A stretch of 62,639 nucleotides of DNA from Bacteroidales bacterium. GTDB taxonomy: Bacteria; Bacteroidota; Bacteroidia; Bacteroidales; UBA7960. The stretch spans positions 1 to 62,639 of the forward strand of contig DATIKK010000008.1 in NCBI GenBank assembly GCA_035477635.1, given 5' to 3'. The position numbers were made by a program, and so were the translations under genes. Shown here in pieces: positions 2,142-55,743 of the stretch (the first letter of the stretch is position 1; the number at the start of each line of letters is the position of its first letter). A model generated the notes under the pieces. It did no database searches and was not told the DNA's origin. It was given only the letters and a program-made list of their open reading frames with translations.

Positions 2142-3188
2142 TTAATTGAAAAAACAATAAAATGTTTCATCGCCGCAAATTACTTTTTCAGGGATTCCAG
2201 AAATTCCAACAGGGGATTTTACTCCTTGTCCGAAAAATTGTTGCCCAACCATTACCCTGGCTTCATCCCAAAGTCCCTCATCTATAAAAGTTTGCAATAA
2301 TTGTCTTCCTCCTTCCACTAAAACCGATTGTATATTCAATGAATGCAGCAGGCTGCATAAGTGATGTAAATTCATTTGTCCTCCTGCAAAGGGAATACTG
2401 CAATATGTAACCCTGTTTTCGGTTTTATCTATTTTTTCGTTTATCACAAGGGTATCCTGCGAATTATCGAAGACTTGCAGGGATTTAGGCAATTCCAAAT
2501 GGCGATCGATAACAATTCGCAGTGGGTTTGTGCCCGTCCAGTCACGTACACTGAGTTTCGGATTATCGGCCAATGCAGTATTTGTTCCCACCATAATTGC
2601 AGACTCCTCGCTTCGCCATTTATGTACCCAAAGCCGAAACCTTTCGCTGGAAATTCTTGCCGGTGGTTTTTCATATGGAAATTCTCTGGGGGCATCAATG
2701 TAACCATCGGCTGTTTGAGCCCATTTCAAAACGATGTAAGGGCGCTTTTTTCCGTGAAAGGTAAAAAACCTCCGGTTGATATGCAGGCAGGAGTTTTTTA
2801 AAACACCAACCGTAACCTCGCACCCGTGATTTCTTAGCCTTGCAATCCCTTTACCGGCAACAACCGAATGCGAATCGATACTTCCTACAACCACTCTTTT
2901 TATCCCATTCTGTATAATCAAATCAGAGCAGGGAGGGGTTTTGCCAAAATGGCTACACGGCTCAAGGTTTACATACAGTGTAGATTCTGGAATAAGCAAT
3001 CGGTTTTGCACTGAATTGATGGCATAAACTTCGGCATGAGGTCCACCAAAAACCCTGTGAAAGCCTTCTCCAATAATATTGTCATGGCAAACAACCACGC
3101 TCCCGACTAAAGGGTTGGGCGCCACCGAACCAAGACCCTTCGCTGCCAAATCAAGGCAGCGATTCATAAATTGCTCATCCCTGTTCAT
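2142..3188 (-). CDS. ribD: Bifunctional riboflavin biosynthesis protein RibD (pyrimidine deaminase / uracil reductase)
   Basis: Zinc deaminase motifs HAEVYAI and PCSHFGKTPPC are present, followed by a RibD C-terminal reductase domain. The length is 348 aa and the start is ATG. Confidence 0.93.
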   Translation of the reverse strand: MNRDEQFMNRCLDLAAKGLGSVAPNPLVGSVVVCHDNIIGEGFHRVFGGPHAEVYAINSVQNRLLIPESTLYVNLEPCSHFGKTPPCSDLIIQNGIKRVVVGSIDSHSVVAGKGIARLRNHGCEVTVGVLKNSCLHINRRFFTFHGKKRPYIVLKWAQTADGYIDAPREFPYEKPPARISSERFRLWVHKWRSEESAIMVGTNTALADNPKLSVRDWTGTNPLRIVIDRHLELPKSLQVFDNSQDTLVINEKIDKTENRVTYCSIPFAGGQMNLHHLCSLLHSLNIQSVLVEGGRQLLQTFIDEGLWDEARVMVGQQFFGQGVKSPVGISGIPEKVICGDETFYCFFN

Positions 3189-3287: not shown

Positions 3288-6254
3288 TTATTTGGTTGCC
3301 TCGTGTTTGTTGTTTTCATTTTCCTCCAAACCCTGGAGCACTTTTTCCAATACAAGCATTATTAAGGATATGTCTTTCTCGATTTCGCCAAGAAGTCTCT
3401 GGACATCCTGAGGTTTTTTGTTGCTCCGGATCTGATTTTGCAAATGATCTATCTTTACTGATACTTCGGAGAAACCCAAATGTGAGAAACCTGGTTTTAT
3501 TTTGTGTAATGCCTGCGCTGCCAGCTCTCCCACATTATTTTTCAAATGTTTTTTTACCCTTTCAATGACCTGGGGAATATTGTTCATGAAATGCTTTACC
3601 AACGAAGCTGCTGCGCTTGAATTATCATCGAAAATCTTGGTTAATGAATCAATGGTCCTTTGCTTCAATACGTTGATTTCAGGCTCATCTCCTTCATCGA
3701 TACTCGAAGTAATGGCTGTTTCAATTTTCTGTTCTTCAGGCACTGTCGAAATATGGCTGATAATCTTACGGTATAATAGTTCTGAGTCGGTAGGTTTTAC
3801 AATATAATCGTTCATGCCGGCCATTTGAACCATAGTACGGGTTTCATCATTTACATCGGCTGTAAGTGCAATGACAATTACGTCAGGATTCAATACATAT
3901 GGTAAGCCTTTACGAATTTTCTCCACCGTTTCAAACCCATCCATTTCGGGCATATGAAGATCCATAAATACTACATCAAAAGCCTTTTTTGAAAGAATTT
4001 CCATGGCTACCCTGCCATTTTCCGCTTCCTCAACATCTGCATTCCATTTTCTGAGAAACTGAAGGATAACAAACCTGTTCATCGGGTCATCCTCAACCAG
4101 CAGGAATTTCAAACCTTTCAGATTTTTATCCTTTGGGCCGGTTTCCTGTACCATTACTTCGGGCGCTTTTTCGCTAACCTCAAAAGGAACCTCGAAAAAG
4201 AAGGTTGACCCTATACCTTCAATACTAACAACTCCAATTTCTCCTCCCAAAAGTTCAACCAACCTTTTGCTAATTGGAAGGCCTAAACCGGTACCCCCAT
4301 ATTTACGATAGGTTTTTTTATCTGCCTGGGTATAACTCTCGAAAATCATTGTCCGCTTTTGGGGGGGGATACCAATGCCGGTATCGGAAACTGAAAACCT
4401 GATCCGACTATGCTTAAGTGTTCTGCTAACTTGCTTAACATATATATTAATATTTCCTTCTGCGGTAAATTTTATCGCATTACTGAGCAAATTCAGTAAT
4501 ATTTGTCTGATTCTTCCTTCATCGCCCATAACATATTCAGGGAGGTTGGAATTTATACTTATTTTTACCGTTAAGCCTTTTTCCCGTGCTTTAAATTCAA
4601 TGGCTTTTGTGGTATTTTTTATCAGATTTGGAAGGTTAAGATAATCCTTATCCAAAACCACCTGACCCTCTTCTAATTTCGACAAATCAAGTACATCGTT
4701 AATTATTCCAAGCAGATGACGACTCGAATATTTTATTGAGCGAATATTTTCAGCAATTTCTTCGCGCATATTCTCGTTGAGGCTGAGCAATTCGGCCAAA
4801 CCAATGATCGAATTAAGGGGAGTCCTTATTTCGTGGCTAATACCTGTAAGAAAGTTTGCCTTTTGCCTTGCCGACTCTTCAGCAAGGATTTTAGCTTTTT
4901 CCAATTCTTTGGCTAACCGCTTGTCGTCAGTAATATCTATAATAATGGCGAAAACCAGATCCCTGCCATTTTCCCTATATTTATTTTCGTATATTTCTAC
5001 ATTACGGAACTGGCCATCCTTGAGCCTGTGCCTTGATTCTTTTGAGAACTTTCCGGGAATTGGAGAAGCAGGTGATATCTGTATCTCTTCAATATTCAAT
5101 TTGGTAATTTCTTCTTCGCTATAACCATAAAATTCGCAAGCAGACTTGTTGCATTTGGTAATGAACCCATTTTCAGGGTTATACACCAAAATTGCTAATG
5201 GATTATTATCGAAAAATCCTCTGAAACGGATGATGCTTTTCTGAAACTCTTCCTCAAAGAATTTCTGTTGATTTATATCATGATATGAACCTAAAACTTT
5301 TACCGGTTGAGAAGCTTCGTTATATACCACAGAAAGTCTAATTAGAATCCAGAGGTATCCTCCATCCTTGGACCTAAAACGGCATGTGAGCTTCTGATTG
5401 GGCACTTCACCCTTCATCATACACCGTTCCAATTCGTCATATATAACAAGATCTGCCGGATGAATCAAATCCTTAAGTACCCTAAGGGTATTATTTAAAT
5501 CATCATCAGAATAACCAAGCATTTCTTTCCATTGGGACGAAAGAAACAGTTCATTTGTTTCAATATTATATTCAGACAAACCATCAGTACTGACCTGCAT
5601 CAGCAACGAATGCCTGTGGTCGGCTTCCAGCATCTTGAGTTCCTGTTCATGTTTATTGGTAACATCAATGGCTGTTACCAGAAATGCAGCCTGGCCAAGA
5701 AACTCTATTTGTTTTGTCATTAACTCTGACCAAATTTCTTCTTTGCCTTTTTGGAGTAGCCTAAACTGTCCATTAATGAGAGGCGTTTTTTGGTTTAAAA
5801 ACCAATTTTTAACTGTTGTATCAGCAATACTCTCAGGATGAATTATTTGCCAAATTTCTAGCGACATAAGGTCTTTCCGCGAAAAACCTGTTAAGCGCTC
5901 CATCGCCTTATTTACATACTTAATTTTATTTTCCTGAAAAATTACCATACCTGCCGCTGATTCTTCGGTTAAATAGTAATAGAAATCCTTTTCAGCTTCT
6001 GCCTCTTTTTTGGTTCTTATCATCCAAAAAACATAAATACCGAGAAAAATTAGGGATAATAAAAGGATAATAATCGCAATGGTATAAAAAATACTTGCAT
6101 CGAGAAAAAGAAGATTGTAATCAACTGGAAACAAATAAGTTTGAAAGGGATAAACTTCAGGTGCTGCAACCATAGTACCGGAATTCTTGCAGGCAGGTGG
6201 CAGCCATTGAAATGAAAACAAGACAGTTAGAAATAAGATTAAAAGTTCTTTCAC
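3288..6254 (-). CDS. Hybrid sensor histidine kinase / response regulator with PAS domains and C-terminal HPt domain
   Basis: The 988 aa protein has N-terminal signal/TM segments and several PAS-like blocks. It has the H-box SHEIRTPLNSI and ATPase boxes LLSNAIKFT, DTGIGI and GGTGLGLPISK. A receiver domain follows (LLVEDDP, FMDLHMPEMDG), then an HPt-like segment (ALHKIKPGFSHLG). The start is GTG. Confidence 0.9.
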   Translation of the reverse strand: MKELLILFLTVLFSFQWLPPACKNSGTMVAAPEVYPFQTYLFPVDYNLLFLDASIFYTIAIIILLLSLIFLGIYVFWMIRTKKEAEAEKDFYYYLTEESAAGMVIFQENKIKYVNKAMERLTGFSRKDLMSLEIWQIIHPESIADTTVKNWFLNQKTPLINGQFRLLQKGKEEIWSELMTKQIEFLGQAAFLVTAIDVTNKHEQELKMLEADHRHSLLMQVSTDGLSEYNIETNELFLSSQWKEMLGYSDDDLNNTLRVLKDLIHPADLVIYDELERCMMKGEVPNQKLTCRFRSKDGGYLWILIRLSVVYNEASQPVKVLGSYHDINQQKFFEEEFQKSIIRFRGFFDNNPLAILVYNPENGFITKCNKSACEFYGYSEEEITKLNIEEIQISPASPIPGKFSKESRHRLKDGQFRNVEIYENKYRENGRDLVFAIIIDITDDKRLAKELEKAKILAEESARQKANFLTGISHEIRTPLNSIIGLAELLSLNENMREEIAENIRSIKYSSRHLLGIINDVLDLSKLEEGQVVLDKDYLNLPNLIKNTTKAIEFKAREKGLTVKISINSNLPEYVMGDEGRIRQILLNLLSNAIKFTAEGNINIYVKQVSRTLKHSRIRFSVSDTGIGIPPQKRTMIFESYTQADKKTYRKYGGTGLGLPISKRLVELLGGEIGVVSIEGIGSTFFFEVPFEVSEKAPEVMVQETGPKDKNLKGLKFLLVEDDPMNRFVILQFLRKWNADVEEAENGRVAMEILSKKAFDVVFMDLHMPEMDGFETVEKIRKGLPYVLNPDVIVIALTADVNDETRTMVQMAGMNDYIVKPTDSELLYRKIISHISTVPEEQKIETAITSSIDEGDEPEINVLKQRTIDSLTKIFDDNSSAAASLVKHFMNNIPQVIERVKKHLKNNVGELAAQALHKIKPGFSHLGFSEVSVKIDHLQNQIRSNKKPQDVQRLLGEIEKDISLIMLVLEKVLQGLEENENNKHEATK

Positions 6255-6526: not shown

Positions 6527-7711
6527 TTAAACAAATTGAATGTTTGTTTCTTTCAGGAATTTTTTTTCAAGCGATTGGACAATTTTTTTGATTACTGTAC
6601 GGCGGATTTCCAGCTCGACCGGCAGGTTCGGGTCTTGATGCGCTACATTGATTGCCGTTCCAACAACAAAAGTTATGCTGTCAACTTCGAGAAACATTTT
6701 CACTATCGAATCAGCAGGGCCCGTGCCTAAATCAGTTCTAGGGCTGAATTTATCCAAAATTTCGGAAACCTTGCTTAGGGTAAGAATCCCTTCAGTAACC
6801 AGGTCTATTCCTTCCATGTAAGACACCGGGGGGAGGTCGGGATCTTCAAAATTAAGGGAGTCTTTGATGGTGATGTTTAATTCGTGTCCAATAATGCTCG
6901 CAGTTGTTCCACCACAAATGATCTTCTTTCCCTCAAAATCCCTGACCATAGCAGCCAACTCCCGGTCTTTTTCCTTATCAAATGGCGGGCCTGAGCAAAG
7001 CAGAAGGTTGCGGGGTTCGCGCAGGTAAACCACCACTGCGCTGATATCGTCTTTTGCCTGATAATTATCGTTTGCGTGTGCTTTGTTTACAAGCCGGCTT
7101 GCTAGTTTATCTGCCGAAATCTCAAATTTTTCTTCCAAACTTTCGAGTAGCATGTGTGCCACATTGTCATGCCCCCAGCCCAGCATGAATTTCCCTTTTC
7201 CTAAGCCCGACTGAGTTACTCCATCGCTCATAAGTACGATACGATCTTCTTTTCGGGAGTTAAAAGTACAGACCATAATTTCTTTTCCTGCAGTGTTTTC
7301 TCTATCCTGCATTATATTGGTCCAGGTGAGTTCCAGCAGTTTTTTATCTCTCAAAACAATAGGGGTGGGATTGTCGTAGTTGATAATGGTGGTTTTGCCC
7401 GATTCTTCAATATCAATTATTGAAAAGGTAGCATAGCTAATTTTCCGTTCGCTGCACACAGGAAGGGTGTTCAGGATAATGTCAGCAATTTTGCGACTAT
7501 CTTTATGTTCTTTGGTAAAATTAAGTGCCATCGTTGCAGTGATGGTCGAAAGGAGATTTGCTTTAACTCCATGACCCATACCATCAGATAATACCACAAC
7601 AGTGCGTTTTTCTTCCTTTACCTTTTGCGAGGCAAACGAATCGCCACAAATGCGTTCGCCTGTATGATTCCTTTGGAATGACCCAACCTCAATATAAAAC
7701 TCATCTTTCAT
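6527..7711 (-). CDS. PP2C/SpoIIE-family Ser/Thr protein phosphatase with uncharacterised C-terminal domain
   Basis: PP2C/SpoIIE motifs ICGDSF, LSDGMGHGVKA and LMSDGV lie in the first ~230 aa. The remaining ~160 aa (KIICGGTTASIIGHEL...VGTAINVAHQD) matches no domain I can name. The ATG overlaps the stop of the upstream H-domain gene as ATGA (7708-7711). Confidence 0.85.
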   Translation of the reverse strand: MKDEFYIEVGSFQRNHTGERICGDSFASQKVKEEKRTVVVLSDGMGHGVKANLLSTITATMALNFTKEHKDSRKIADIILNTLPVCSERKISYATFSIIDIEESGKTTIINYDNPTPIVLRDKKLLELTWTNIMQDRENTAGKEIMVCTFNSRKEDRIVLMSDGVTQSGLGKGKFMLGWGHDNVAHMLLESLEEKFEISADKLASRLVNKAHANDNYQAKDDISAVVVYLREPRNLLLCSGPPFDKEKDRELAAMVRDFEGKKIICGGTTASIIGHELNITIKDSLNFEDPDLPPVSYMEGIDLVTEGILTLSKVSEILDKFSPRTDLGTGPADSIVKMFLEVDSITFVVGTAINVAHQDPNLPVELEIRRTVIKKIVQSLEKKFLKETNIQFV

Positions 7712-9567
7712 GAGCCTTGTTGTTTCTTAAGTTTTTGATAGGTTTCGATGATTGAGTTCAGCATCTTTTCGGTATTGCTGGCGCCCTCACCCAAGAGGAA
7801 GGCTATGTTTTGAACCATTTTCAGGTTCTCGTCAATAACTTCTGTTACCCGATTTATAACCTCTTCTTTGCGTACTTCGGCAATGTGCATATCGCGAAAA
7901 ACACCACCGACTATTTTATTGCTTTTTAAAGAATATATGCTTACATTAAGCAGGTTTTCACCATGGTTAACATCCTTTCCGATTACATTCTCATCTTGTT
8001 CAAGTACATAGGCAAACAGGTTATAAATATTATGGGGGAGAAGCGATTTTAAATCAGCTCCGACCATGCCAGGAATTACCTCGTTGATTACGGCAGCATC
8101 TTCACCCAGAATTTTTACGAAACTCTGATTCGACTCAATAATTTGTAATTTCTCGTTCACAATAACGGCTGCAGATGGTAGGTTTTGAAACAGGGCCGAA
8201 ATGGTTTGGACCTCTTGTTTTATCTTCTGGTTTTCAGCCTTCAGGCCTTTTTCAACATCATTCTGGGTATCGGTCAGCTTTTTCAGTTTATCATTATTGC
8301 TTTTTAGTACCCTTATGTACTCACTTTTGCTCCTAATGGAATAATTGAGGCACATTTCGGGTTTGCTAAGCCCCTGGCTGATTGAAATGGCAAAATCGCG
8401 GCAACTCCGGTATCCGCAAGCGCTGCACGATGGTCTCTTTTCCAGGTCTTTTCCGAGGCTTTTCATTATTTCCTCTATTCGATCATTGCCCGGTACCGGA
8501 AGTCTCTGATCGTCTTTAACAAAGGTTCGCGATAGGTCGAGTGCAGAATAGTTTCTCATTTCCTGTTCCCATCTTGGCCTGTCAAAATCTTTCAGGCGCT
8601 TATTGGCATAAGCAACCACCATCGACCTTCGAAGAAATTTGTTTGATGACACTGTTGTTCCGGGTCCCATCAGGCAGCCCTGATCGTAGAAAAGGCTGAA
8701 ATGCTTTTTCATGGAATCTGATTCGGCTGAGAACTCTTCAACTGCGTGAATCATATTCTCCTTACCACTTGCCGATACCACCGAGCCGTAAAGCAAATCA
8801 GTACTGACTCCCGATGCATATGTGAATCCGTTTGGCAATGGGTACAGAGACCCCAGATAGCCTATGGGTGGATCAAAATCAGAAAACTCGACCATACCTT
8901 CCTTTATGTTAAATCTTTCGAACAACTGGCGAAGTTCCCTGAAAGTGAGTACTGCATCAATTCGTCCATCATCCTCAAAAAGATGTGCATCATATTTGGC
9001 CGACAGGCAGGGGCCAAAGCAAACAATTTTCACATCCATCCCGTATGTTTTTCGAACCACCTTTGCAGTGGCAGTCATGGGAGTTACAATGGGGGCAAGG
9101 TTTTCGGTAAGTTCAGGATGAAATTTTTCTACAAAAGAAACCAGACTCGGACAATTAGCCGTCAGATAATACTTCCCTTTGAAGTTTTCCAACAACGTTT
9201 TGTATTTTTCGGCTACCAGATCAACTCCAAACGAAATTTCGACAACATAATCGAACCCAAGGGTTCGGATCATCTCAACAAATTTCCTGTAGTCGAGTAT
9301 ATCCGGAAATTCGCCGCTTATGGTTGGATCAACAATAGCTGCAACCTTTTGCTCCGAAGCCAGCAATTCGACCGCCCTGTCGAGGTCGCTACAATGCGAA
9401 ACCGCATTCGACCCGCACACCGAAAGGCAACTGCCACATCCTATACACCTGTCGTGGTTTACCACAGGCTTTCCGTCGTCGCGCGATGAAATGGCTTTTA
9501 CCGGGCAAATCCGCACGCAGGCATATGATTTATTGCAGGCATTCAGATCAATGTTAATTATTTGCAT
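7708..9567 (-). CDS. Sensory-type [FeFe]-hydrogenase-like protein (HydS/HfsB-like): ferredoxin + H-domain + extra 4Fe-4S motif + PAS
   Basis: There are two N-terminal 4Fe-4S motifs (CNKSYACVRICP, CIGCGSCLSVC). The H-domain carries variant motifs TANCP, GPCLSAKYD and QGCLMGPG. A CSACGYRSC-x16-C motif and a C-terminal PAS-like domain follow. The protein is clearly paralogous to the 14502..16550 product, with shared blocks SFVEK(F/H)HP, LDL(S/T)RTF and DDQR. Confidence 0.85.
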   Translation of the reverse strand: MQIINIDLNACNKSYACVRICPVKAISSRDDGKPVVNHDRCIGCGSCLSVCGSNAVSHCSDLDRAVELLASEQKVAAIVDPTISGEFPDILDYRKFVEMIRTLGFDYVVEISFGVDLVAEKYKTLLENFKGKYYLTANCPSLVSFVEKFHPELTENLAPIVTPMTATAKVVRKTYGMDVKIVCFGPCLSAKYDAHLFEDDGRIDAVLTFRELRQLFERFNIKEGMVEFSDFDPPIGYLGSLYPLPNGFTYASGVSTDLLYGSVVSASGKENMIHAVEEFSAESDSMKKHFSLFYDQGCLMGPGTTVSSNKFLRRSMVVAYANKRLKDFDRPRWEQEMRNYSALDLSRTFVKDDQRLPVPGNDRIEEIMKSLGKDLEKRPSCSACGYRSCRDFAISISQGLSKPEMCLNYSIRSKSEYIRVLKSNNDKLKKLTDTQNDVEKGLKAENQKIKQEVQTISALFQNLPSAAVIVNEKLQIIESNQSFVKILGEDAAVINEVIPGMVGADLKSLLPHNIYNLFAYVLEQDENVIGKDVNHGENLLNVSIYSLKSNKIVGGVFRDMHIAEVRKEEVINRVTEVIDENLKMVQNIAFLLGEGASNTEKMLNSIIETYQKLKKQQGS

Positions 9568-9615
9568 GTCTTTTACTCTTAAAGGATTTTCGTAAAAGGT
9601 GAGCGGAGTTTCTTT

Positions 9616-9876
9616 CTATTTGTTTTCAAAAAACGCATCTAAAAACTCGATAACATTTGATTCGGTAACTTGACAAAAAAGGTTGTCATTAATTTTGAGT
9701 AAAGGCCCTTCCACACATTTTCCCAAACAATGCGACCCCTTAAAAATAACTCTGCGGGTCCGACCTGTTTCACGAAGGTAATCCATTATCGCTGGCAGGG
9801 TTTTCTTATTGCCACGTGAAAAACAACTGCTACCCATGCATATTGTAATTTCGAGAACAGGCTCTTCCATTCGCAT
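9616..9876 (-). CDS. Thioredoxin-like [2Fe-2S] ferredoxin (NuoE C-terminal-domain type, HfsA-like position)
   Basis: The 86 aa protein has a C-x4-C-x31-C-x3-C pattern (CMGSSC ... CLGKC). It is the first gene of the minus-strand operon ending in the PP2C phosphatase. Confidence 0.7.
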   Translation of the reverse strand: MRMEEPVLEITICMGSSCFSRGNKKTLPAIMDYLRETGRTRRVIFKGSHCLGKCVEGPLLKINDNLFCQVTESNVIEFLDAFFENK

Positions 9877-10134
9877 AACATTAGATTACAGGGCCTTAAT
9901 GCATTTGAACACCAGAAATTATTTGCCAACCGCAAAGGAAAACCGCAATTTTTCAATCGGACTGGATTTCACCCGGCCTGGTATCAAATCAGGTATTTTT
10001 TTAACACTTCCAAATTTAATAAACCTTTTCAAATTACCTGGTTAATTAAATAACAACCAGCATGTATTCATTTATTGAGTAGCATGGCATCTGCTCCCTA
10101 ACGGTTTGTCCTAATCTGATTTATTGATTGTTGC

Positions 10135-10159
10135 ATGTGAAAACCTGTTGTTTTAACAT
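10135..10159. promoter_or_regulatory. 25-bp imperfect palindrome ATGTGAAAAC-N5-GTTTTAACAT in the divergent hydrogenase control region
   Basis: Nine of 10 arm positions are complementary. It lies 87-111 nt upstream of hydC and about 260 nt upstream of the divergent ferredoxin gene. Confidence 0.35.
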
Positions 10160-10224
10160 AAATAGATAGGTAAATTAAAAATTTATGATCAAAAAGAATG
10201 ATTTTTGTCTTAACTTTATTAATA

Positions 10225-10242
10225 TTGTGAAAAAAATTACAA
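10225..10242 (+). promoter_or_regulatory. Candidate Rex operator TTGTGAA-AAAA-ATTACAA, 3 nt upstream of the hydC start
   Basis: It matches the published Rex box architecture TTGTGAA-N4-TTCACAA at 12 of 14 half-site positions. A rex gene lies in the same gene string. Confidence 0.4.
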
Positions 10243-10245
10243 CTC

Positions 10246-10728
10246 GTGCCAACACAATCTTATGAGGAAATTCTTCAAAAATTTCCCAACAGGCAACCTG
10301 AGGACCTCATACAGCTTTTGCATGAAATACAGGATGAACATGGCTACCTATCGGCCGAAGCAATTGGTGTTGTTAGCCGGTTTTTAGACATTTCGGTCAA
10401 TAAAATTTATGGAGTTGCTACTTTTTACGACAATTTTCGTTTCGCTCCAGTTGGCAAATATCATATCAGGATATGCAACGGGACCGCTTGTAAAGTATCG
10501 GGTTCTACTATGCTTATCAGGGAATTGGAAAAGCAACTTGGAATTTCTTCAGAACAACCCGAAGATTCTTCATTGTTTACTTTAGAAATAGTTTCTTGTC
10601 TCGGGGCATGCGGATTGGCTCCAATAATTGAAGTGAACGGCGAATTTTATACAGAAATGACAATTCAGAAACTTCAATTACTTCTGCACCACCTTCAAAC
10701 AAAAGACCAGGCCTTATATGAAACCTGA
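10246..10728 (+). CDS. hydC: NuoE-like [2Fe-2S] subunit of trimeric [FeFe] hydrogenase (HydC)
   Basis: The 160 aa protein has the NuoE pattern CNGTAC ... CLGAC. The start is GTG and there is no upstream in-frame ATG. Its stop overlaps the hydB start by 11 nt. Confidence 0.85.
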   Translation: MPTQSYEEILQKFPNRQPEDLIQLLHEIQDEHGYLSAEAIGVVSRFLDISVNKIYGVATFYDNFRFAPVGKYHIRICNGTACKVSGSTMLIRELEKQLGISSEQPEDSSLFTLEIVSCLGACGLAPIIEVNGEFYTEMTIQKLQLLLHHLQTKDQALYET

Positions 10729-12670
10729 AGATACTGATAACATCAAACGTTTCCTGATATCGGAGGTACTCTTCTCGCCCGAGGCACAGGCCGATCCTTC
10801 GGTAGCCAGGGAACTGTCGTATATCTGCCGGGAAAGGGTTTTCAAACCTATGGTTTATGTAGGGATGGGCTCTTGTGGGGTCATTGCAGGCGCTGGAAAA
10901 GTATTTGAGACCATCCGTCAATATATCGACGACCAGGCATTAAATGTTGACCTGATTGCAGGAGGTTGCCTGGGATTTTGCAGCGCAGAACCGATAGTTG
11001 ATGTTCAGTTGCCAGGCAAGGCAAGGATTTCGTTTGGCAATGTAACTGTTGATAAGGTTTCGCACATACTCGATGAAGTTTTGAACCATTGCATGCCACA
11101 AAATGTTAATGTTTTAGGGCAATATGCCAGCGAAATCTTCCAAAACTGGGAGGGAATCCCTAACCTGTTTTCGCACTCTTTTTTTTCGTCACAAAACCGC
11201 ATTCTTATGGATAACTGCGGTTTAATTGACCCGGTTTCGATCCATGAATACATTGCAAGGGGTGGATACAAGGCCTTCGCAAAATCTATTTCTTTCCATA
11301 CTCCGGCTGCTGTTTGCCAAGAAGTTGAAGATAGCCTGCTGGCAGGTCGTGGAGGTGGAGCCTTTCCAGTTGGAAAAAAATGGAGACTTGTTCTTAATGC
11401 CGTTTCTGGTCAAAAATACTTCATTTGCAATGCAGTAGAAAGTGACCCGGGAAGTTATATGAACAGGGCCATCATCGAAAGCAACCCTCACCGCCTTATT
11501 GAGGCCATTCTTATTGGAGCCTATGCAATAGGTGCCACCAAAGCATTTGTCTTCATCCGTAAGGAGTTTAAATTGGCAACAGAACGGTTTGAAAAGGCAC
11601 TAAACAACGCCCGTGAATTTGGCCTGATAGGCCACCATATCCTGGAATCGGGAGTAAACATTGAAATAACGTTAATAAAAGGTGCAAGGGCATTTGTTTG
11701 CGGCGAAGAAACCGCCCTTATCAACTCTGTGGAAGGAAAAAGGGCCATGCCAGACTCCAAACCCCCATTCCCTTCTGAAAGAGGCCTTTGGAATAAACCT
11801 ACCATTGTAAACAATGTTGAAACCCTTTTTAATGTCCCTCTTATCCTTCAGAACGGAGCTGATTGGTACAAAGCCATTGGAACCGAAAAAAGCAAGGGAA
11901 CAAAACTCTTTACCCTTTCGGGAAAGGTTCAACGGTCTGGCATAATTGAAGTGCCAATGGGTATTTCATTCAGGGAGATTGTGAATAAAATTTCAGGCGG
12001 TACTCTGAATGGAAAAAGGTTTAAGGCCATATTCCTTGGAATAAACTCCGGAAACTTCATCACCGAAAATACCATTGATGTGCGGGTTGATTTCGACGAA
12101 ATGATGAATATTGGAGCAGCCTTGGGCAGTGGAGGATTTGTGGTGGTTGACGAAACGGCCTGTATGGTAGATATGGCAAAATATTTTACCGGATTTTTTC
12201 AAAGGGAAAGTTGTGGTAAATGCATTCCGTGCAGGGAAGGAACAGCCAGAATGCTTGAAATAATGCAGCTTACAACTAAAAGACCAGGTAAAAGAAACAA
12301 ATTGCATACACTTGAACGTTTCAAAGGGGTGATGCAATTGCGCACCATGGCTTCTGTCATTAAGGAAACTTCGCTATGCGCCCTTGGCAGATCGGCTCCA
12401 AATGCAATCATTAATACCCTGCAAAGTTTTAAATCCGAATTTGAAAGTCATCTTTACGACAGAAAATGCCCGGCTGGAGTTTGCAGCGACTTGCGGGTTT
12501 TTTCAATTGATGTTGAGAAATGCACCGGGTGCACAGCATGCTATAAAAAATGCCCTGTTGAAGCTATTATAGGGTCGCCAAGAGTACCTCATTTTGTTGT
12601 TGAAGACCGCTGCACAGGCTGCGGCTTTTGTTACGACGCCTGTAAGTTCAACGCTGTTATGATATATTAA
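10718..12670 (+). CDS. hydB: NuoF-like flavoprotein subunit of trimeric [FeFe] hydrogenase (HydB)
   Basis: The 650 aa protein has an N-terminal thioredoxin-like domain and the FMN/NADH site GRGGGAFPVGKKW. It has the N3-type cluster motif ESCGKCIPCREG and C-terminal ferredoxin motifs CTGCTACYKKCP and CTGCGFCYDAC. Confidence 0.9.
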   Translation: MKPEDTDNIKRFLISEVLFSPEAQADPSVARELSYICRERVFKPMVYVGMGSCGVIAGAGKVFETIRQYIDDQALNVDLIAGGCLGFCSAEPIVDVQLPGKARISFGNVTVDKVSHILDEVLNHCMPQNVNVLGQYASEIFQNWEGIPNLFSHSFFSSQNRILMDNCGLIDPVSIHEYIARGGYKAFAKSISFHTPAAVCQEVEDSLLAGRGGGAFPVGKKWRLVLNAVSGQKYFICNAVESDPGSYMNRAIIESNPHRLIEAILIGAYAIGATKAFVFIRKEFKLATERFEKALNNAREFGLIGHHILESGVNIEITLIKGARAFVCGEETALINSVEGKRAMPDSKPPFPSERGLWNKPTIVNNVETLFNVPLILQNGADWYKAIGTEKSKGTKLFTLSGKVQRSGIIEVPMGISFREIVNKISGGTLNGKRFKAIFLGINSGNFITENTIDVRVDFDEMMNIGAALGSGGFVVVDETACMVDMAKYFTGFFQRESCGKCIPCREGTARMLEIMQLTTKRPGKRNKLHTLERFKGVMQLRTMASVIKETSLCALGRSAPNAIINTLQSFKSEFESHLYDRKCPAGVCSDLRVFSIDVEKCTGCTACYKKCPVEAIIGSPRVPHFVVEDRCTGCGFCYDACKFNAVMIY

Positions 12671-12685
12671 ACCCTGACAGAAGTT

Positions 12686-14392
12686 ATGAAATTTTTTATA
12701 AACGTCGATAATAGTCAGGTCGAAGTACAGGAGGGGGAAACCTTGCTCAATGTGCTCAAACGTCAGGGCATCAGGGTGCCAACCCTTTGTCATATGGAAA
12801 AGTTTTCACCCACCGGAGCGTGCAGGCTTTGCGTAGTCGAAGTGGAGGGAAAAAGGGATTTGATTACATCATGCAGTTACCCGGTTGAAAGAAACATGAA
12901 GGTTTTTACCAATACCCAAAGGGTTGTCAGGGCAAGAAAAATAATTGTTGAAATGCTACTGTCGGCGCATCCTGACGATTGCCTTTATTGCGAACGTAAT
13001 GGTAATTGTGAGCTACAAGTGTTATCTGAACAAATGAATGTAAAGGAGCGCAGGTTTTTTTCAAAGAAAAAGCCTTTGTACCCCGACTATTCAAGTCCAA
13101 GTGTGTTGCGCGACCCTTCTAAATGTGTTTTATGCGGCCGATGTGTGCGGATATGTGATGAAACTCAAATGGTTTCGGCTATTGATTTTATTGCAAGAGG
13201 CACCAAAACGCATGTGAACAGCGCTTATAAAAAGGGACTCAATGTAGAAAGCTGCATTCATTGTGGTCAATGCATTATGGTTTGTCCTACCAGCGCACTT
13301 TCCGACCATCCACACCTTGAAAAGGTGCAGGCCGCCCTTGGTGATCCCAAAAAGCAGGTAATTTTTTTGGTTTCGCCTGCCGTTACCGCTTCTTTAGACG
13401 ACATTTTTGGAATGAAACCCGAAAAAGATGCAGGCAACTATGCATGCGCATGTCTTAAAAAAATTGGAGCTCAAAAAGTTTTCGATTTAGGCATTGCATC
13501 CGATATTAATGTAAGTATGGACGCGCAACTTTTGGCAAGAAACATTGAACAGGGGGTAACCGGACCACTTATCAATTCCTGCTGTCCCGGATTTGTTAAA
13601 TTTGCTGAAGAATTCAGGCCGGATGTCTTATCGAGGCTGGCTCCATACAGGTCGCCACAGCAAATTTTCGGCAGGTTGCTGAAAACACTTTATACAAAGC
13701 AGAATAATATACATCCTGATAACCTGTACACCGTAGCCATAATGCCCTGCGTTGGCAGCAAATTTGAGGCTTCCCGTCAGGAAATGACCCAAAAGGGAAT
13801 ATCTGAGATAGATGCAATACTTACCACACGGGAGTTTTTGCGCTTGATAAGGACATTCGGGCTGGATTATAAATATGTTGAACCAGCCCCCTTTGATGAA
13901 CCCTTTCGTAAGGCATCCTCGTTTTCATTTAAAATGAGCTATTCTGGCGGAAAAGCTGAGGCTGTTGCTGCTGAACTTTACGAAAGATTGGGAAAATCCG
14001 GGCAAGAAACTTTTAAATTTCAATCTGTAAAAAAAGTTGGAGGAATAAGGGAAGCCAAAATGGTTGCTGGAGATAGAACCTTTGGTTTTGCCTGGGTCAG
14101 TGGAATTGCCAATGCATGCGCCTACCTTGACCAACTTTTTGAAGAGAAGCGGATGGATGTTCATTATGTTGAAGTAATGGCTTGCCAAAATGGCTGTCTG
14201 GGCGGCGGTGGACAACCAATATTCTTTGGCAATGATAAATTTCAGAACCGTAAAAAAACTTGCCAGGAATTAGAAAAATTTTCCCACTGTGTTCTGCCAA
14301 GCCATAATCAACAATTATGGCAGGTCTTGAAGGAAATGATGAAGGAGGCCGGAACAGAAGATTTACATGGTTATTTTCATCTTTTAAAATGA
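12686..14392 (+). CDS. hydA: [FeFe] hydrogenase catalytic subunit HydA with canonical H-cluster motifs
   Basis: The 568 aa protein has an N-terminal 2Fe-2S motif (C-x10-C-x2-C) and a His-ligated cluster motif HPDDCLYCERNGNC. It has two CxxCxxCxxxCP motifs. The H-cluster motifs are NSCCPGF (L1), MPCVGSKFE (L2) and EVMACQNGCLGGGGQP (L3). Confidence 0.93.
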   Translation: MKFFINVDNSQVEVQEGETLLNVLKRQGIRVPTLCHMEKFSPTGACRLCVVEVEGKRDLITSCSYPVERNMKVFTNTQRVVRARKIIVEMLLSAHPDDCLYCERNGNCELQVLSEQMNVKERRFFSKKKPLYPDYSSPSVLRDPSKCVLCGRCVRICDETQMVSAIDFIARGTKTHVNSAYKKGLNVESCIHCGQCIMVCPTSALSDHPHLEKVQAALGDPKKQVIFLVSPAVTASLDDIFGMKPEKDAGNYACACLKKIGAQKVFDLGIASDINVSMDAQLLARNIEQGVTGPLINSCCPGFVKFAEEFRPDVLSRLAPYRSPQQIFGRLLKTLYTKQNNIHPDNLYTVAIMPCVGSKFEASRQEMTQKGISEIDAILTTREFLRLIRTFGLDYKYVEPAPFDEPFRKASSFSFKMSYSGGKAEAVAAELYERLGKSGQETFKFQSVKKVGGIREAKMVAGDRTFGFAWVSGIANACAYLDQLFEEKRMDVHYVEVMACQNGCLGGGGQPIFFGNDKFQNRKKTCQELEKFSHCVLPSHNQQLWQVLKEMMKEAGTEDLHGYFHLLK

Positions 14393-14501: not shown

Positions 14502-16550
14502 ATGGAGCAACCTGCACAAAATCAATTTATATTCACTGTCAAGGACAGATGCAGGGTGTGTTATGCCTGTATTCGGGAATGCCCTGCCAAGGCCATAAGG
14601 ATTGAAAATGGGCAGGCCGAAATCATCCAGTCAAGATGTATTGTATGTGGCAATTGTGTTAAAGTGTGCAGCAGGAGCGCCAAAATGTTCTCATTTTCGA
14701 TTGACAGGGTAAAGAAATTGTTGCGTGAGCAGCCAAAAGTAGTTGCCATGGTAGCCCCAAGCATTGCAGCAGAATTTACCGATATTTCCGATTACAGGGC
14801 ATTTGTGGGGATGATAAAAGCCCTGGGTTTCAATTATGTAAATGAAGTAGCATTTGGGGCCGAACTGGTCGCCCACAAATACCAGGAACTGTTGAGCATG
14901 CATCCAGACCGGACTTATATTTCAACAAGTTGCCCGGCTATTGTAAGCTTTGTGGAAAAACATCACCCTCAGGTAATTGGTGCCCTCTCTCCAATTGTTT
15001 CGCCAATGATAGCCACTGCAAAAGTTCTGAAAAAGTTGCATGGCGACAACCTGCGGATTGTTTTCATTGGTCCTTGTATTGCCAAGAAAGGAGAAGCCGT
15101 ACGCAACCAGTATAGTGGTTTGATAGATGAGGTAATTTCTTTTATTGAGCTTCGGAGAATGTTCTTAGAAAAGGGATTAACCGAAAATAATGTAGAATCT
15201 TTTGAATTTGATCCTCCATTGGCTGGCAAAGGGGCAATTTTCCCAATTAGCGGAGGTATGCTTCAAACAGTTGACCTTGAAGAAGATTTCATTAAGGGTG
15301 AAATAGTTGTTGCTGAAGGTAAACAGGAAATCACCGGAGTACTTAAGGAGTTTGAAGAAGGTTATCTTGAGGCCAAACTGTTTGACCTTTTATGTTGCAA
15401 CGGGTGCATAAATGGCCCGGGAATGAGTCACAAACATCAGTTTTTCAATAAAAGAAAAAGCATTTCCAATTTCACAAAGCGTAAATTCGACATGTTAGAA
15501 TTGGAGGAGTGGAAAAGGAACCTGACAACTTACCTGGAACTTGACCTTACAAGAACTTTTCTCCCTGATGACCAGCGACCTCATAATGTTGTAGGAGTGG
15601 ATGAGGTAAAAAAGGTAATGAAGGAACTTGGAAAGCAAATTCCGGAAGATGAACTCAATTGCGGCGCATGCGGATATGATACCTGTATGGACCATGCTAT
15701 TGCAATAGTCAACGGGAATGCCGAAATCGAAATGTGCCTTCCAAATACCATAGAAAAACTGCATGAATACATAAAGGAACTTGACATATCTAACAAAAAA
15801 CTCGAATCGACCAGGGCGGCACTAAAACAAAGCGAAAAACTTGCCTCAATGGGACAGCTTGCTGCAGGGATTGCACACGAAGTAAATAACCCCTTAGGTG
15901 TGGTCATAATGTATAGCCATATACTTCTTGATGAAATTGACCCGGGGTCCCCGCTGTTTCGCGACTTGCAGCTAATCGTTGAACAGGCCGACCGTTGCAA
16001 AAAAATTATAGGCGGGCTGCTGAATTTTGCGCGCAAAAGCAAGGTTTATTTTACAAAAACCAATGTTAACCAACTGATTAAAGACGGATTACGCACACTT
16101 GTTCTCCCCGACAATATTAAATTGATGATTAATGTTCGTACAAAAGACCCTGTGTTGGAATGCGACCACGATCAAATGGTGCAGGCTTTTGGAAATCTAT
16201 TTAAAAATGCCGTTGATGCAATGCCACAAGGAGGTGTACTCAAAATAAAAGTTAGTGATGATATAGAAACTGATGAGGTTTTGTTTGAGATTTCTGACAA
16301 CGGTACTGGCATTTCGCCCGAAAACATGGAAAGAGTCTTTGAACCATTTTTTACAACCAAAGAAAGCGGACAAGGTACAGGACTTGGTTTACCAATAATT
16401 TATGGAATTGTAAAAATGCACCGCGGAAATATTAAGGTCGAAAGCAATAATGACCCTTCGAAAGAAGAGACGGGAACTACTTTTCTGGTATGGATTCCAA
16501 GACACAAGGTTGATGTTGGTGAAACAAAAGAGCAACAGGCGTCAAATTAA
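14502..16550 (+). CDS. Sensory-type [FeFe]-hydrogenase H-domain fused to a histidine kinase
   Basis: The 682 aa protein has ferredoxin motifs CRVCYACIRECP and CIVCGNCVKVC. The H-domain has motifs STSCP, GPCIAKKGE and LLCCNGCINGPG, followed by the extra motif CGACGYDTC-x16-C and a coiled-coil linker. The kinase part has the H-box AGIAHEVNNPL and ATPase boxes LFKNAVDAM, DNGTGI and GTGLGLPI. Confidence 0.88.
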   Translation: MEQPAQNQFIFTVKDRCRVCYACIRECPAKAIRIENGQAEIIQSRCIVCGNCVKVCSRSAKMFSFSIDRVKKLLREQPKVVAMVAPSIAAEFTDISDYRAFVGMIKALGFNYVNEVAFGAELVAHKYQELLSMHPDRTYISTSCPAIVSFVEKHHPQVIGALSPIVSPMIATAKVLKKLHGDNLRIVFIGPCIAKKGEAVRNQYSGLIDEVISFIELRRMFLEKGLTENNVESFEFDPPLAGKGAIFPISGGMLQTVDLEEDFIKGEIVVAEGKQEITGVLKEFEEGYLEAKLFDLLCCNGCINGPGMSHKHQFFNKRKSISNFTKRKFDMLELEEWKRNLTTYLELDLTRTFLPDDQRPHNVVGVDEVKKVMKELGKQIPEDELNCGACGYDTCMDHAIAIVNGNAEIEMCLPNTIEKLHEYIKELDISNKKLESTRAALKQSEKLASMGQLAAGIAHEVNNPLGVVIMYSHILLDEIDPGSPLFRDLQLIVEQADRCKKIIGGLLNFARKSKVYFTKTNVNQLIKDGLRTLVLPDNIKLMINVRTKDPVLECDHDQMVQAFGNLFKNAVDAMPQGGVLKIKVSDDIETDEVLFEISDNGTGISPENMERVFEPFFTTKESGQGTGLGLPIIYGIVKMHRGNIKVESNNDPSKEETGTTFLVWIPRHKVDVGETKEQQASN

Positions 16551-16561
16551 TAAATTGGAAG

Positions 16562-16960
16562 ATGCAACAAAGTAAAAAAATTACAATTCTGATCGTAGAT
16601 GACGATTTCGACTACCTTTTCCAGTTAAAAGCCGGTTTACTGGAAATGGGGTTTGAAGTTATTACAGCCGAAGGGCAAAAGGAAGCAGAGAAAATTCTTG
16701 AACGGCTTAAACCCGATATGGCAATCTTAGACCTTATGATGGAAAGCCATGATTCAGGATTTATTTTAAGCCATAGAATCAAAGACCTTTATCCCGATGT
16801 GCCCATTATTATAGTATCGGCAGTAACGGCCGAAACCGGTTTCGATTTTGATGTAACAAGTCTTGAAGAACAAAGCTGGATAAAAGCCGATTTGTTCCTC
16901 GATAAGGGTATCAGGAAGGATCAATTACAGCGAGAAATTTTTAAACTACTAAAACTTTAG
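16562..16960 (+). CDS. Single-domain response regulator (receiver only)
   Basis: The 132 aa protein has the receiver signature LIVDDD, phospho-acceptor context AILDLMM, and a conserved Lys in LDKG. It has no output domain. It lies 11 nt after the preceding kinase gene. Confidence 0.85.
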   Translation: MQQSKKITILIVDDDFDYLFQLKAGLLEMGFEVITAEGQKEAEKILERLKPDMAILDLMMESHDSGFILSHRIKDLYPDVPIIIVSAVTAETGFDFDVTSLEEQSWIKADLFLDKGIRKDQLQREIFKLLKL

Positions 16961-16962
16961 GC

Positions 16963-18087
16963 ATGGCAAAACTTGCCATAATGGTTGTTGATGATGAGCC
17001 CGGAATCAGAAGCGGGGTTACACGAATCCTCGAAAATTTCTCGGTTAGCTTTCCTTTTATGGATGAAGACTTCGATTTTGAAGTAACTGAGGTTTCGACT
17101 GGAGAGGAGGCCATCAACCAATTGTTGAACAGGCAATTCGATATTGTGCTGCTCGATAATAAACTACCCGGTATTCAAGGCGTTGACGTTTTAGATTTTA
17201 TCTCCAACAAGCAAATTGAAGTAATTGTGGTTATGATTACTTCATACGCTTCGCTTGATCTGGCAGTAAGAGCAACCCGGCAGGGCGCCTTTGATTTTGT
17301 TCCAAAGCCTTTTACCCCAAAGGAGCTTAGGGCCAACCTCGAAAATATTACAAAGCATCTCTTTTTGAAAAGAATGACCCAAAAAATGAACCTCGAAGGA
17401 AGGCATGCCAGATTCCAATTCCTTTCGGTATTGTCGCACGAACTCAAAGCTCCAATAAACGCAATTGAGGGTTATCTTAAAATGATGCAGGAAAAGAAAG
17501 CCGGAGAATACATTTCAGGTTATATGGAAATGATTGATCGCGCTTTAATGAGGTTGCAGAGTATGCGGAATCTCATTCTTGATATGCTGGACCTGACGCG
17601 GATCGAAAGTGGAAAAAAGAGCAGGTTTGTTGAACCAATTTTGCTTTGTGAAATTGCCCAACAGTGTATTGACACATTTCAGCCATTGAGCATCCAGAAG
17701 GGAATTGAAATTTATCTGAACTGTGTGCAGGAAATAATGGTTAACTCCGATAAAAAAGAAATGGAAATTGTTTTTAATAACCTAATCAGCAACGCAATAA
17801 AATACAATAAAGAAGGGGGAAGGGTAGATGTGAACCTGGGTGTTGAGCAAAATAATGCCGTAATTAAGGTAACCGATACAGGCATAGGCATGAAACCCGA
17901 TGACCTGGGTAAACTCTTCGAAGATTTTGTGAGGATAAAATCTGAAGAAACCAGGCATATAAGCGGAAGCGGGCTTGGCTTGTCAATTGTAAAAAAAATC
18001 CTCGATTTTTATGGAGCAATTATTCAAGTAGATAGCACTCCGGGCGAAGGCAGCAGCTTTGTAATTTATTTTCCAATGAAAAATTAA
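16963..18087 (+). CDS. Receiver-histidine kinase fusion (N-terminal REC, HisKA, HATPase)
   Basis: The 374 aa protein has a receiver domain (VVDDEP, VLLDNKLPG, VPKPF). It has the H-box LSHELKAPINAI and the boxes LISNAIKYN, DTGIGM and GSGLGLSI. It has no transmembrane or sensor domain. Confidence 0.88.
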   Translation: MAKLAIMVVDDEPGIRSGVTRILENFSVSFPFMDEDFDFEVTEVSTGEEAINQLLNRQFDIVLLDNKLPGIQGVDVLDFISNKQIEVIVVMITSYASLDLAVRATRQGAFDFVPKPFTPKELRANLENITKHLFLKRMTQKMNLEGRHARFQFLSVLSHELKAPINAIEGYLKMMQEKKAGEYISGYMEMIDRALMRLQSMRNLILDMLDLTRIESGKKSRFVEPILLCEIAQQCIDTFQPLSIQKGIEIYLNCVQEIMVNSDKKEMEIVFNNLISNAIKYNKEGGRVDVNLGVEQNNAVIKVTDTGIGMKPDDLGKLFEDFVRIKSEETRHISGSGLGLSIVKKILDFYGAIIQVDSTPGEGSSFVIYFPMKN

Positions 18088-22604: not shown

Positions 22605-22642
22605 CGATATTTTTGAAATTTTCTTTTGAACAGGCAGAACTT

Positions 22643-52544: not shown

Positions 52545-52576
52545 TGCTTGGTTATTACTCTATTAATTATTGGTTT

Positions 52577-53371: not shown

Positions 53372-53379
53372 AGGTAAAT

Positions 53380-54714: not shown

Positions 54715-54743
54715 AACCGGTTCATTTTAGGGCTAGTCTTTAA

Positions 54744-55715: not shown

Positions 55716-55743
55716 ATGCTTTCAAATTAATTTTTAGAGATAA

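Follow-up and report, generated by a model that had tools for sequence, protein, structure and literature searches.

The stretch of DNA considered here, hereafter the window, comprises 62,639 nucleotides of contig DATIKK010000008.1 (assembly GCA_035477635.1) from an uncultured Bacteroidales bacterium of soil or sediment, of the UBA7960 lineage. Three adjacent genes on its minus strand encode, in the order in which they are read, an 86-amino-acid (86-aa) thioredoxin-like [2Fe-2S] protein (9616-9876), a 619-aa protein built around the H-domain of [FeFe]-hydrogenases (7708-9567), to which we refer as the sensor, and a 394-aa phosphatase of the SpoIIE/RsbU-type PP2C family (6527-7711). The original prediction, made from the sequence alone, had described the trio as an operon resembling hfsABC with the domain logic of a phosphatase-linked sensory hydrogenase, and the coordinates and common orientation that it gave are exact. 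The stop codon of the 86-aa gene and the start codon of the sensor gene are separated by 48 nucleotides (nt), and the stop of the sensor gene overlaps the start of the phosphatase gene as ATGA (7708-7711, minus strand, read directly from the sequence). The same three genes recur in the same order across 80 Bacteroidales species genomes, and in the sensor of this genome, as in most of its close relatives, one of the four cysteines that ligate the H-cluster has been replaced.

Conservation of the module was assessed with the 80 best genomic matches to the sensor, one per Bacteroidales species genome, in which the sensor is 52-86% identical to that of the window, and the neighbourhoods were compared by tblastn of the window proteins against these 80 loci. 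All 80 come from uncultured Bacteroidales or Bacteroidota, with sediments, digesters and lakes as their sources, and near-identical DNA is contained in soil and sediment metagenomes. Homologs of the sensor are detectable in 2495 proteins, and the best 120 of the 2495 (61-87% identical, about 617 aa long) serve below as the close homologs; wherever the source of one of these 120 is named, it is Bacteroidales or Bacteroidota. A library clustered at 50% identity yielded 708 representatives that match the sensor below an E value of 1e-30; of the full-length ones listed (about 616-623 aa), only 8 matched over the whole length, the last 190 residues included. Across the 80 species genomes the 2Fe-2S gene is followed by the sensor gene and this in turn by the phosphatase gene, all divergent from hydCBA, and the phosphatase gene stands directly after the sensor gene in all loci of adequate length. 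The recurrence of this order in each locus that is long enough is not a product of chance. The ATGA overlap had been taken as a hint that sensor and phosphatase form a stoichiometric complex; among related loci, however, the stop-to-start distance ranges from -11 to about +270 nt, with overlaps in roughly 9 of 75, and only adjacency on one strand is kept. These distances rule out the overlap as a conserved coupling signal, and it therefore offers no argument for a stoichiometric complex. Rfam and tRNA scans returned no matches, and the counts from promoter and terminator scans were no higher than chance.

The sensor is recognised as a HydS/HfsB-like protein by its matches to the Pfam Fer4 families, PF02906 and PF04060. 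Its AlphaFold model has a mean predicted local distance difference test (pLDDT) score of 86.7, and the top matches to this model in a Foldseek search of the PDB are [FeFe]-hydrogenases (E about 1e-20). Residues 1-60 (9388-9567, minus strand, as are all parts of the protein) form a ferredoxin domain of the 2x[4Fe-4S] type, recognised from its motifs. The ferredoxin motifs of the original prediction are thus present as a region, with the correction that motif 1 (C11-x2-S14-x2-C17-x3-C21-P) carries a serine in place of its second cysteine; motif 2 consists of C41/44/47/51. Position 14 is serine in 114 of the 116 close homologs aligned there and threonine in the remaining 2, and it is cysteine in 130 of 142 distant representatives of groups C and D. 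The H-domain follows at residues 62-340 (8548-9384); it was recognised by PF02906, which matches residues 74-301 (E 6e-35), and was aligned with CpI and TmHydA. The predicted domain stands, with only three of its four H-cluster cysteines. Beyond it lies an accessory iron-sulfur (Fe-S) motif, C381-x2-C384-x4-C389-x16-C406 (8338-8445), which had been correctly anticipated, falls within a PF04060 match (E 3.7e-6) and is invariant in the 120 close homologs and in 8 distant family representatives. A C-terminal motif of this form, Cx2Cx4Cx16C, is described as what unites the enzymes of groups C and D (PMC13104023).

The C-terminal part of the sensor is modelled as three elements. A long helix, probably a coiled coil (residues 407-461, 8185-8349), joins the Fe-S region to a PAS-like unit and is the least conserved segment of the protein, with 41% mean identity to the window protein. 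The PAS-like unit itself (residues 466-559, 7891-8172) has in the AlphaFold model the topology beta-beta-4 helices-beta-beta-beta, that is, a five-stranded alpha/beta unit. The predicted PAS domain rests on this model and on an NCBIfam PnpS match over residues 411-569 (E 4e-7), and is best called PAS-like; Pfam lends it no such backing, as no PAS family is matched by the 619-aa protein at default thresholds. The terminal helix (residues 563-617, 7717-7881), delimited from the model and from conservation, is the most conserved segment of the sensor, with 80% mean identity and 44% of its columns at least 95% conserved, although its model confidence is low (pLDDT 55-69). Its motif (...AFLLGEGAS.TEKMLNSII..) is kept in the HydS protein of L081, a metagenomic contig from another lineage, and residues Q586, I588, L592, G593, E594 and L603 are at least 90% conserved in 78 sequences down to 24% identity. 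On this pattern of conservation, the helix is a candidate output or docking element.

Within the H-domain, alignment with the HydA of the window, with a 682-aa H-domain paralog encoded nearby and with 270 homologs allows the cluster ligands to be assigned. The cysteines are C139 in motif L1 (TANCP), C187 in L2 (GPCLSAKYD) and C298 in L3 (FYDQGCLMGPG), and the position of the remaining member of the canonical set (C300, C355, C499 and C503 of CpI), C499, is taken by Asp295, whose codon lies at 8683-8685. Among the 120 close homologs this position is Asp in 44, His in 42, Asn in 31, Ser in 2 and Cys in 1, and in 72 of the 80 species it is Asp, His or Asn; it is Cys in 7 of the 8 distant full-length relatives and in 135 of 142 other group C/D representatives. 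In a neighbour-joining tree of the 80 species the basal lineages have Cys, and the position must have switched among Cys, Asp, His and Asn at least 9 times. No residue type other than Asp, His, Asn, Ser or Cys occurs there in the 120 close homologs and the 80 species genomes, though Tyr, Lys, Gln and Glu are each one mutation away, from which we conclude that the position is constrained. The residue after the ligand (8680-8685 in the window spans both) also varies in a patterned manner, a His ligand being always followed by a non-acidic residue that is small or hydrophobic (Ala, Ser, Gly, Thr or Leu), and Asp, Asn or Cys by Glu, Gln or Lys; because the His sequences form one clade, the pattern on the His side amounts to a single event.

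Other parts of the pocket are altered as well. The proton-relay cysteine (C299 of CpI) is replaced by Asn138, which is Asn in 117 of the 120 close homologs, and the position of Met353 is Gly185. Asp80, His289 and Asn/Ser291, which set this clade apart from the rest of group C, are fixed within it, and D80, N138 and H289 are strictly conserved new pocket residues. C139, C187, C298, G185, P186, G297, G301, D80 and P81 are conserved in all 120 close homologs, and 32% of the H-domain columns are at least 95% conserved across the 80 species, a proportion that equals or exceeds that of every other region except the C-terminal helix. Judged from this conservation, the pocket is under selection and not decaying. 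Asp295 occupies the same ligand position as C362 of Chlamydomonas HydA1 (the first L3 cysteine, four residues before the bridging cysteine), where the substitutions C362D, C362S and C362H have been made; those are laboratory mutants of a catalytic enzyme, whereas the substitution in the window is natural, recurrent, set in a sensory-type scaffold and accompanied by further changes in the pocket. The C362H variant is reportedly the subject of a study of its own.

The phosphatase gene was predicted correctly both in its family, since residues 34-229 match PF07228 (SpoIIE, E 1.6e-16), and in the ATG that overlaps the preceding stop. The PP2C catalytic domain (residues 1-231, 7019-7711, minus strand) is delimited by its metal-binding motifs and its fold; the PPM metal-binding residues D24, D43-G44, D163-G164 and D221-D222 are invariant in 41 homologs. 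Sequence matches in the PDB are to SpoIIE and RsbX, and in structural searches with Foldseek SpoIIE (5mqh) ranks first (E 1.6e-11), followed by RssB and RsbX. The remainder of this HfsC-like protein is a C-terminal alpha/beta domain (residues 235-394, 6530-7009, minus strand), to which no Pfam family corresponds even at an E value of 10. Weak structural likeness to methylglyoxal synthase and UbiX (Foldseek, E 0.01-0.03) and a profile search of the PDB that returned a SIS-domain phosphoheptose isomerase alone (E 0.031) were considered as identities for this domain and set aside as too weak to assign. It contains 41 invariant columns in 28 sequences, those of L081 included, and could possibly serve as a second signal input. 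RsbP, the energy-stress phosphatase of Bacillus subtilis, combines PAS, coiled coil and PP2C in one chain. By analogy, the PAS-like unit, the helical linker and the SpoIIE/RsbU-family PP2C of the module would correspond to these elements, in the same order; unlike in RsbP, they are split over two polypeptides, the PAS-like unit comes after a hydrogenase-derived domain, and no STAS protein or kinase partner was found nearby in the window.

The 86-aa protein is HfsA-like, and its predicted ligand spacing, Cys13-x4-Cys18-x31-Cys50-x3-Cys54, was verified; its match to PF01257 (E 6e-10) scores 39.6 bits against a cutoff of 24.8. Its best match in the PDB is the C-terminal 2Fe-2S domain of Thermotoga maritima HydA (residues 572-641, E 1.5e-6), and with the 83-aa protein encoded ahead of HydS in L081 it shares 37% identity over its full length. 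It most likely exchanges electrons with the sensor. In most of the 80 loci the gene precedes that of the sensor; it went undetected in about 15 (L057, L062-L067, L070, L072, L073, L075 and L077-L080), where most intergenic regions measure only about 200-340 bp. Ferredoxin motif 1 of the sensor has all four cysteines there, and Ser14 occurs only where the small gene is present; given the few independent events, this co-occurrence may be a matter of shared ancestry. We considered whether a 2Fe-2S domain fused to HydA replaces the small protein there, and rejected the idea, as hydA shows no extra length in these roughly 15 loci and leaves no room for such a domain. In some of the loci L063-L080 the phosphatase gene is immediately followed by a second set of NuoE-like, HydA-like and NuoF-like genes in the opposite orientation.

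The module is part of a conserved island that spans about 17 kb and was delineated in the 80 loci by the tblastn comparison. To one side of the divergent intergenic region lie hydC, hydB, hydA, a gene for an H-domain protein fused to a kinase, a receiver gene, a receiver-kinase gene, rex and ribF; to the other lie the 2Fe-2S, sensor and phosphatase genes, a hybrid kinase gene in some loci, and ribD. In the window, hydC (NuoE-like), hydB (NuoF-like) and hydA encode, by their Pfam matches, a HydABC-type [FeFe]-hydrogenase (10246-14392, plus strand), the HydA subunit being 568 aa long (12686-14392, plus strand). HydA scores 542 bits against the NCBIfam model for the group A6 NADH-dependent hydrogenase, below the curated cutoff of 765, so this match does not name the protein. 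HydABC is presumed to be either the target of the module or the source of its signal. Directly after hydA, here as in the related loci, lies the gene for the paralog already mentioned (14502-16550, plus strand), a second sensory-type H-domain protein of 682 aa fused to HisKA and HATPase domains (PF02906 at E 7e-48, PF04060, HATPase_c), which has all four H-cluster cysteines as well as the Lys-Lys pair in L2 (STSCP, GPCIAKKGEA, LCCNGCINGPG). It is followed on the plus strand by a receiver protein (16562-16960), a receiver-histidine kinase (16963-18087), both recognised by Pfam and NCBIfam, and Rex (18098-18733; 199 bits against a cutoff of 126), all three conserved in the loci. The divergent intergenic region between the sensor operon and hydC (9877-10245) holds a Rex-like box, TTGTGAAAAAAATTACAA, whose position, 10225-10242, leaves 3 nt to the start of hydC, and 10039-10056 is noted along with it; TTGTGAAAAAAATTACAA is the sole match to TTGTNAANNNNTTNACAA with one mismatch in the 62.6-kb window. 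Of 71 loci, 32 have such boxes in this region, where their density is 0.69 per kb as compared with 0.014 per kb in the flanks (about 50-fold).

Downstream of the phosphatase gene, after 272 nt, the minus strand encodes a 988-aa hybrid histidine kinase (3288-6254) in which Pfam recognises three PAS domains, HisKA, HATPase, a receiver and a weak Hpt. We do not count it as a core member of the module, as it is absent from many loci, where ribD stands directly after the phosphatase gene. The conserved flanks ribD (2142-3188) and ribF (18763-19686), which are riboflavin/FAD genes, enclose the island in nearly all of the 80 loci, and HydB is an FMN protein; the flanking could be functional, or merely a conserved backbone. 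The H-cluster maturase HydG is encoded 11 kb from the module (20599-22029, plus strand; TIGR03955 at 501 bits against a cutoff of 312), and neither hydE nor hydF turned up among the open reading frames (ORFs) of the window that were scanned. Farther along lie a regulator of the Rrf2 family (22613-23059), a type IX secretion gene (PorD), and a minus-strand cluster at 50766-56493 comprising an acyl-CoA dehydrogenase, an LdhH/TfrB-like Fe-S oxidoreductase, a 444-aa protein and EtfA/EtfB, which may represent another electron-bifurcating system in the same genome.

Sensory [FeFe]-hydrogenases with this composition are catalogued in HydDB as group C3, 'phosphatase-linked (putative)' (PMC5037454), and the physiology of the phosphatase-linked, sensory class is still described as putative (PMC8924675; PMC12578642). 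The best matches of the sensor outside its own family share the group C architecture. On the contig L081 the gene of an iron alcohol dehydrogenase is followed by those of an 83-aa 2Fe-2S protein, a 578-aa HydS and a 387-aa SpoIIE protein, the last two overlapping by 8 nt, and then by those of a second 2Fe-2S protein (90 aa) and a hydrogenase of 475 aa, which is the layout described for hfsABCD (PMC11837493). Over their full lengths the 2Fe-2S protein, the sensor and the phosphatase of the window are 37%, 31% and 50% identical to their L081 counterparts, and these matches take in the PAS-like unit, the terminal helix and the extra phosphatase domain. Given the full-length matches and the C3 class, the hfsABC-like, phosphatase-linked label of the original prediction is right as a statement of homology and gene order.

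The hfsABCD genes of Thermoanaerobacterium saccharolyticum and T. thermosaccharolyticum show the same order of small protein, H-domain/PAS protein and Ser phosphatase, a likeness that was assessed on the sequences of the metagenomic contig L081. Genetic work in Thermoanaerobacterium led to a regulatory, non-catalytic role being proposed for HfsB, with the phenotype dependent on hfsC and hfsD (PMC5707799; PMC11837493). In contrast to hfsABCD, no ferredoxin-dependent hydrogenase of the hfsD type follows here, the next gene being that of the hybrid histidine kinase or ribD, and the module is instead divergent from hydCBA, which presumably supplies the partner hydrogenase. Moreover, the fourth H-cluster cysteine and one ferredoxin cysteine are replaced in the window sensor, whereas the L081 sensor keeps both. 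TmHydS of T. maritima (group C, M2f) shares with the window protein the ferredoxin domain, an H-domain lacking the proton-relay cysteine, Gly at the Met353 position and the C-terminal four-cysteine cluster, and its PAS domain may correspond to the PAS-like unit (PMC10055695; PMC13104023). All ligating cysteines and the residues that hydrogen-bond to the di-iron site are, however, conserved in TmHydS, and its H-cluster was shown by spectroscopy (PMC10055695), whereas the aspartate ligand of the window protein is known from sequence. HydS of Ruminococcus albus is described as a putative H2 sensor with an H-cluster subunit, PAS and a phosphatase subunit, located beside H2-responsive hydrogenase genes (PMC6776011); it shares a transcript with a ferredoxin-only hydrogenase and an alcohol dehydrogenase (PMC6776011), unlike the window module, whose neighbour is of the HydABC type. 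The histidine-kinase-linked [FeFe] sensors of group C1 and the [NiFe] pair HoxBC-HoxJ likewise couple a hydrogenase-derived sensor to a phosphorylation output (PMC5037454; PMC5707799); a protein of the C1 type is encoded in the same island, while the output of the module is a Ser/Thr phosphatase and not a His kinase.

We consider it probable, though well short of certain, that the three genes are the Bacteroidales version of the HfsA-HfsB-HfsC/HydS module, of the phosphatase-linked type in group C, and that they constitute a signalling device as opposed to a metabolic hydrogenase. This reading builds on homology, domain content, the intact phosphatase motifs, the conserved synteny and the ligand substitution; for cofactor content, contact between sensor and phosphatase, signal and target, we infer the following scheme. 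The 2Fe-2S protein and the N-terminal clusters would link the H-site to cellular electron carriers, and the Fe-S clusters and remodelled H-cluster pocket of the 619-aa protein would act as metal sites whose state depends on redox conditions or H2. A change of state would be passed through the C-terminal [4Fe-4S] region and the long helix to the PAS-like unit and the terminal helix, which would dock on the SpoIIE-type PP2C and alter its activity; the phosphatase would in turn dephosphorylate a putative phospho-Ser/Thr protein. The output would tune the divergently encoded HydABC and the redox balance of fermentation, alongside Rex and the kinase-fused H-domain sensor. Control of HydABC and of redox balance is the likely purpose because hydCBA is divergent from the module, a Rex-like box lies between them, and the kinase-fused paralog stands in the same island. 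We take the Asp295 site to represent a natural site-differentiated cluster that is still bound, and the set-point of the sensor may be shifted by it.

Several observations weigh against this interpretation. The isolated PAS segment matches PAS_8 (E 0.004) and PAS_9 (E 0.013) below the Pfam thresholds, and a profile of 26 sequences from the region found no match among PDB sequences. No STAS protein, anti-sigma kinase or Ser/Thr kinase is present among the scanned ORFs of at least 120 aa in the 62.6-kb window, and for that reason the phosphatase has no visible substrate there. RNA runs sought as evidence for an operon yielded none, the matching data being soil and sediment DNA metagenomes only; a literature search returned no functional work on this protein or on any Bacteroidota homolog, in agreement with the original prediction that no function had been demonstrated for such modules in Bacteroidota. 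In addition to having Asp295 as its fourth ligand, and hence three of the four expected cysteines, the sensor has Asp80 in place of Ala230 (Asp in 120 of 120 close homologs), Asn/Ser291 at the L3 Glu/Asp position, and Ala190 at the position of Lys358 of CpI, the lysine that contacts the distal cyanide, followed by Lys191 for Lys359. Owing to the missing cysteine, Ala190, Asp80 and the Ser or Asn in L3, the pocket may no longer hold a di-iron subcluster. Substitutions of Lys358 are known to block H-cluster assembly (PMC9516953), and in the close homologs this position is Ala, Ser, Val, Thr or Leu, with Lys or Arg at position 191 in 116 of the 120. The lysine argument is nonetheless weak, since the window HydA (MPCVGSKFEA) and its orthologs vary at the same position (Lys, Asn, Ser, Met or Glu) with the next Lys invariant, and the sensor keeps K191; we accordingly do not take Ala190 as proof that the H-cluster is lost. 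The variation among the HydA orthologs suggests that the second lysine is able to take over the cyanide contact. HydA also has Phe for Trp in motif L1 (NSCCPGF).

The Chlamydomonas mutants bear on both halves of the cluster. In HydA1 the bridging cysteine is C366, four residues after C362; variants with Asp or Ser for C362 retain the [4Fe-4S] cluster, load the di-iron subcluster to 10-20% only, and show slow, low activity biased towards H2 uptake, whereas C362A takes up no di-iron subcluster; the same study points out that, in other hydrogenases, Asn, Gln and His are encountered in the first sphere around accessory clusters (PMC5855289). By analogy with these mutants, and given the conservation of the H-domain and the invariant C298, Gly and Pro residues, a [4Fe-4S] cluster with a non-cysteine fourth ligand is likely bound in the sensor. 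For the di-iron subcluster we would put the odds at about even.

The chief alternative, possible though on the whole we doubt it, is that the 619-aa protein is a pseudo-hydrogenase which has lost its di-iron site and does not react with H2. It would instead use ordinary Fe-S clusters, supplied by the 86-aa protein, to sense how reduced or oxidised the ferredoxin/NADH pool is, with H2 sensing left to the neighbouring histidine-kinase-fused protein and its intact ligands. The clade-specific changes in the pocket (at C499, Lys358, Ala230 and the L3 Glu/Asp position) fit such a loss, as does the block that Lys variants impose on H-cluster assembly (PMC9516953), and both the paralog at 14502-16550, with its four cysteines and Lys-Lys, and the characterised sensory enzymes, which keep all ligating cysteines and di-iron hydrogen-bonding residues (PMC10055695), illustrate what an intact site would retain. 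The force of the lysine position is limited, however, by its variation in catalytic HydA and by K191 in the sensor; the bridging Cys298 does not vary, nor do the Gly and Pro residues of the pocket, Asp or Ser at the ligand is tolerated in laboratory mutants with the subcluster retained (PMC5855289), and the strictly conserved D80, N138 and H289 would fit a working pocket.

A separate question, the answer to which need not exclude the other readings, is whether the 86-aa protein serves the sensor at all or is a detached subunit of HydABC, comparable to the C-terminal 2Fe-2S domain of T. maritima HydA or to HydD. That domain is its closest solved relative and is missing from the 568-aa HydA of the window, and the gene sits between those of the sensor and HydC. 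We nevertheless regard this as unlikely, for the gene is on the strand of the sensor gene and only 48 nt upstream of it, the 83-aa homolog precedes HydS in L081 with no hydABC nearby, and the roughly 15 loci in which the small gene was not detected show no lengthened hydA. Least probable by a wide measure is that the 619-aa protein is an ordinary enzyme that evolves or consumes H2 and has the phosphatase gene as an unrelated neighbour. The H-domain fold, the catalytic hydrogenases among its top structural matches and the nearby maturase gene would be expected of such an enzyme, but its proton-relay cysteine has become Asn138, one cluster ligand is not cysteine, it bears in addition a PAS-like unit and a conserved output helix, the phosphatase gene follows throughout the 80 species and in a distant lineage, and characterised relatives have very low activity (PMC8924675).

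Beyond the signalling role that we favour for the module, we offer, tentatively and as speculation, that the H-cluster pocket of this clade has been rebuilt for a different job, either as a ligand-tuned dial or without any di-iron subcluster at all. In the former version, the residue at the fourth ligand position could set the potential of a site-differentiated [4Fe-4S] cluster and hence the threshold of H2 or redox poise at which the phosphatase is switched. In the latter, the pocket, with Asp80, Asn138 and His289 as invariant polar residues that are new to it, might accommodate another ligand or an open iron site, which, if true, would amount to a new class of hydrogenase-derived sensor. Under either version, a canonical H2 sensor with a histidine kinase as its fusion partner would be operating alongside.

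As a type, the module is known: HydDB lists it as group C3, and it is common in metagenomes. What is new here is the natural and recurrent replacement of an H-cluster ligand, the remodelled pocket that surrounds it, and the conserved association of two H-domain sensors, each wired in its own way, with HydABC and Rex; taken as a whole, we regard it as a useful lead rather than a surprise. To our knowledge, no signalling pathway of a sensory [FeFe]-hydrogenase has been worked out, and we know of no lineage in which the substrate of the phosphatase has been established. The series of Asp, His, Asn and Cys at a single ligand is a natural counterpart of the laboratory mutants made to tune catalytic bias, and provides ready-made proteins with which to ask how cluster ligation sets the threshold of a sensor. 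Sensory [FeFe]-hydrogenases are thought to help fermenting organisms match their metabolism to ambient H2, and the island described here is a simple, conserved test case for that role, in which an H-domain sensor with a phosphatase output and another with a kinase output are arranged, together with Rex, around one HydABC.

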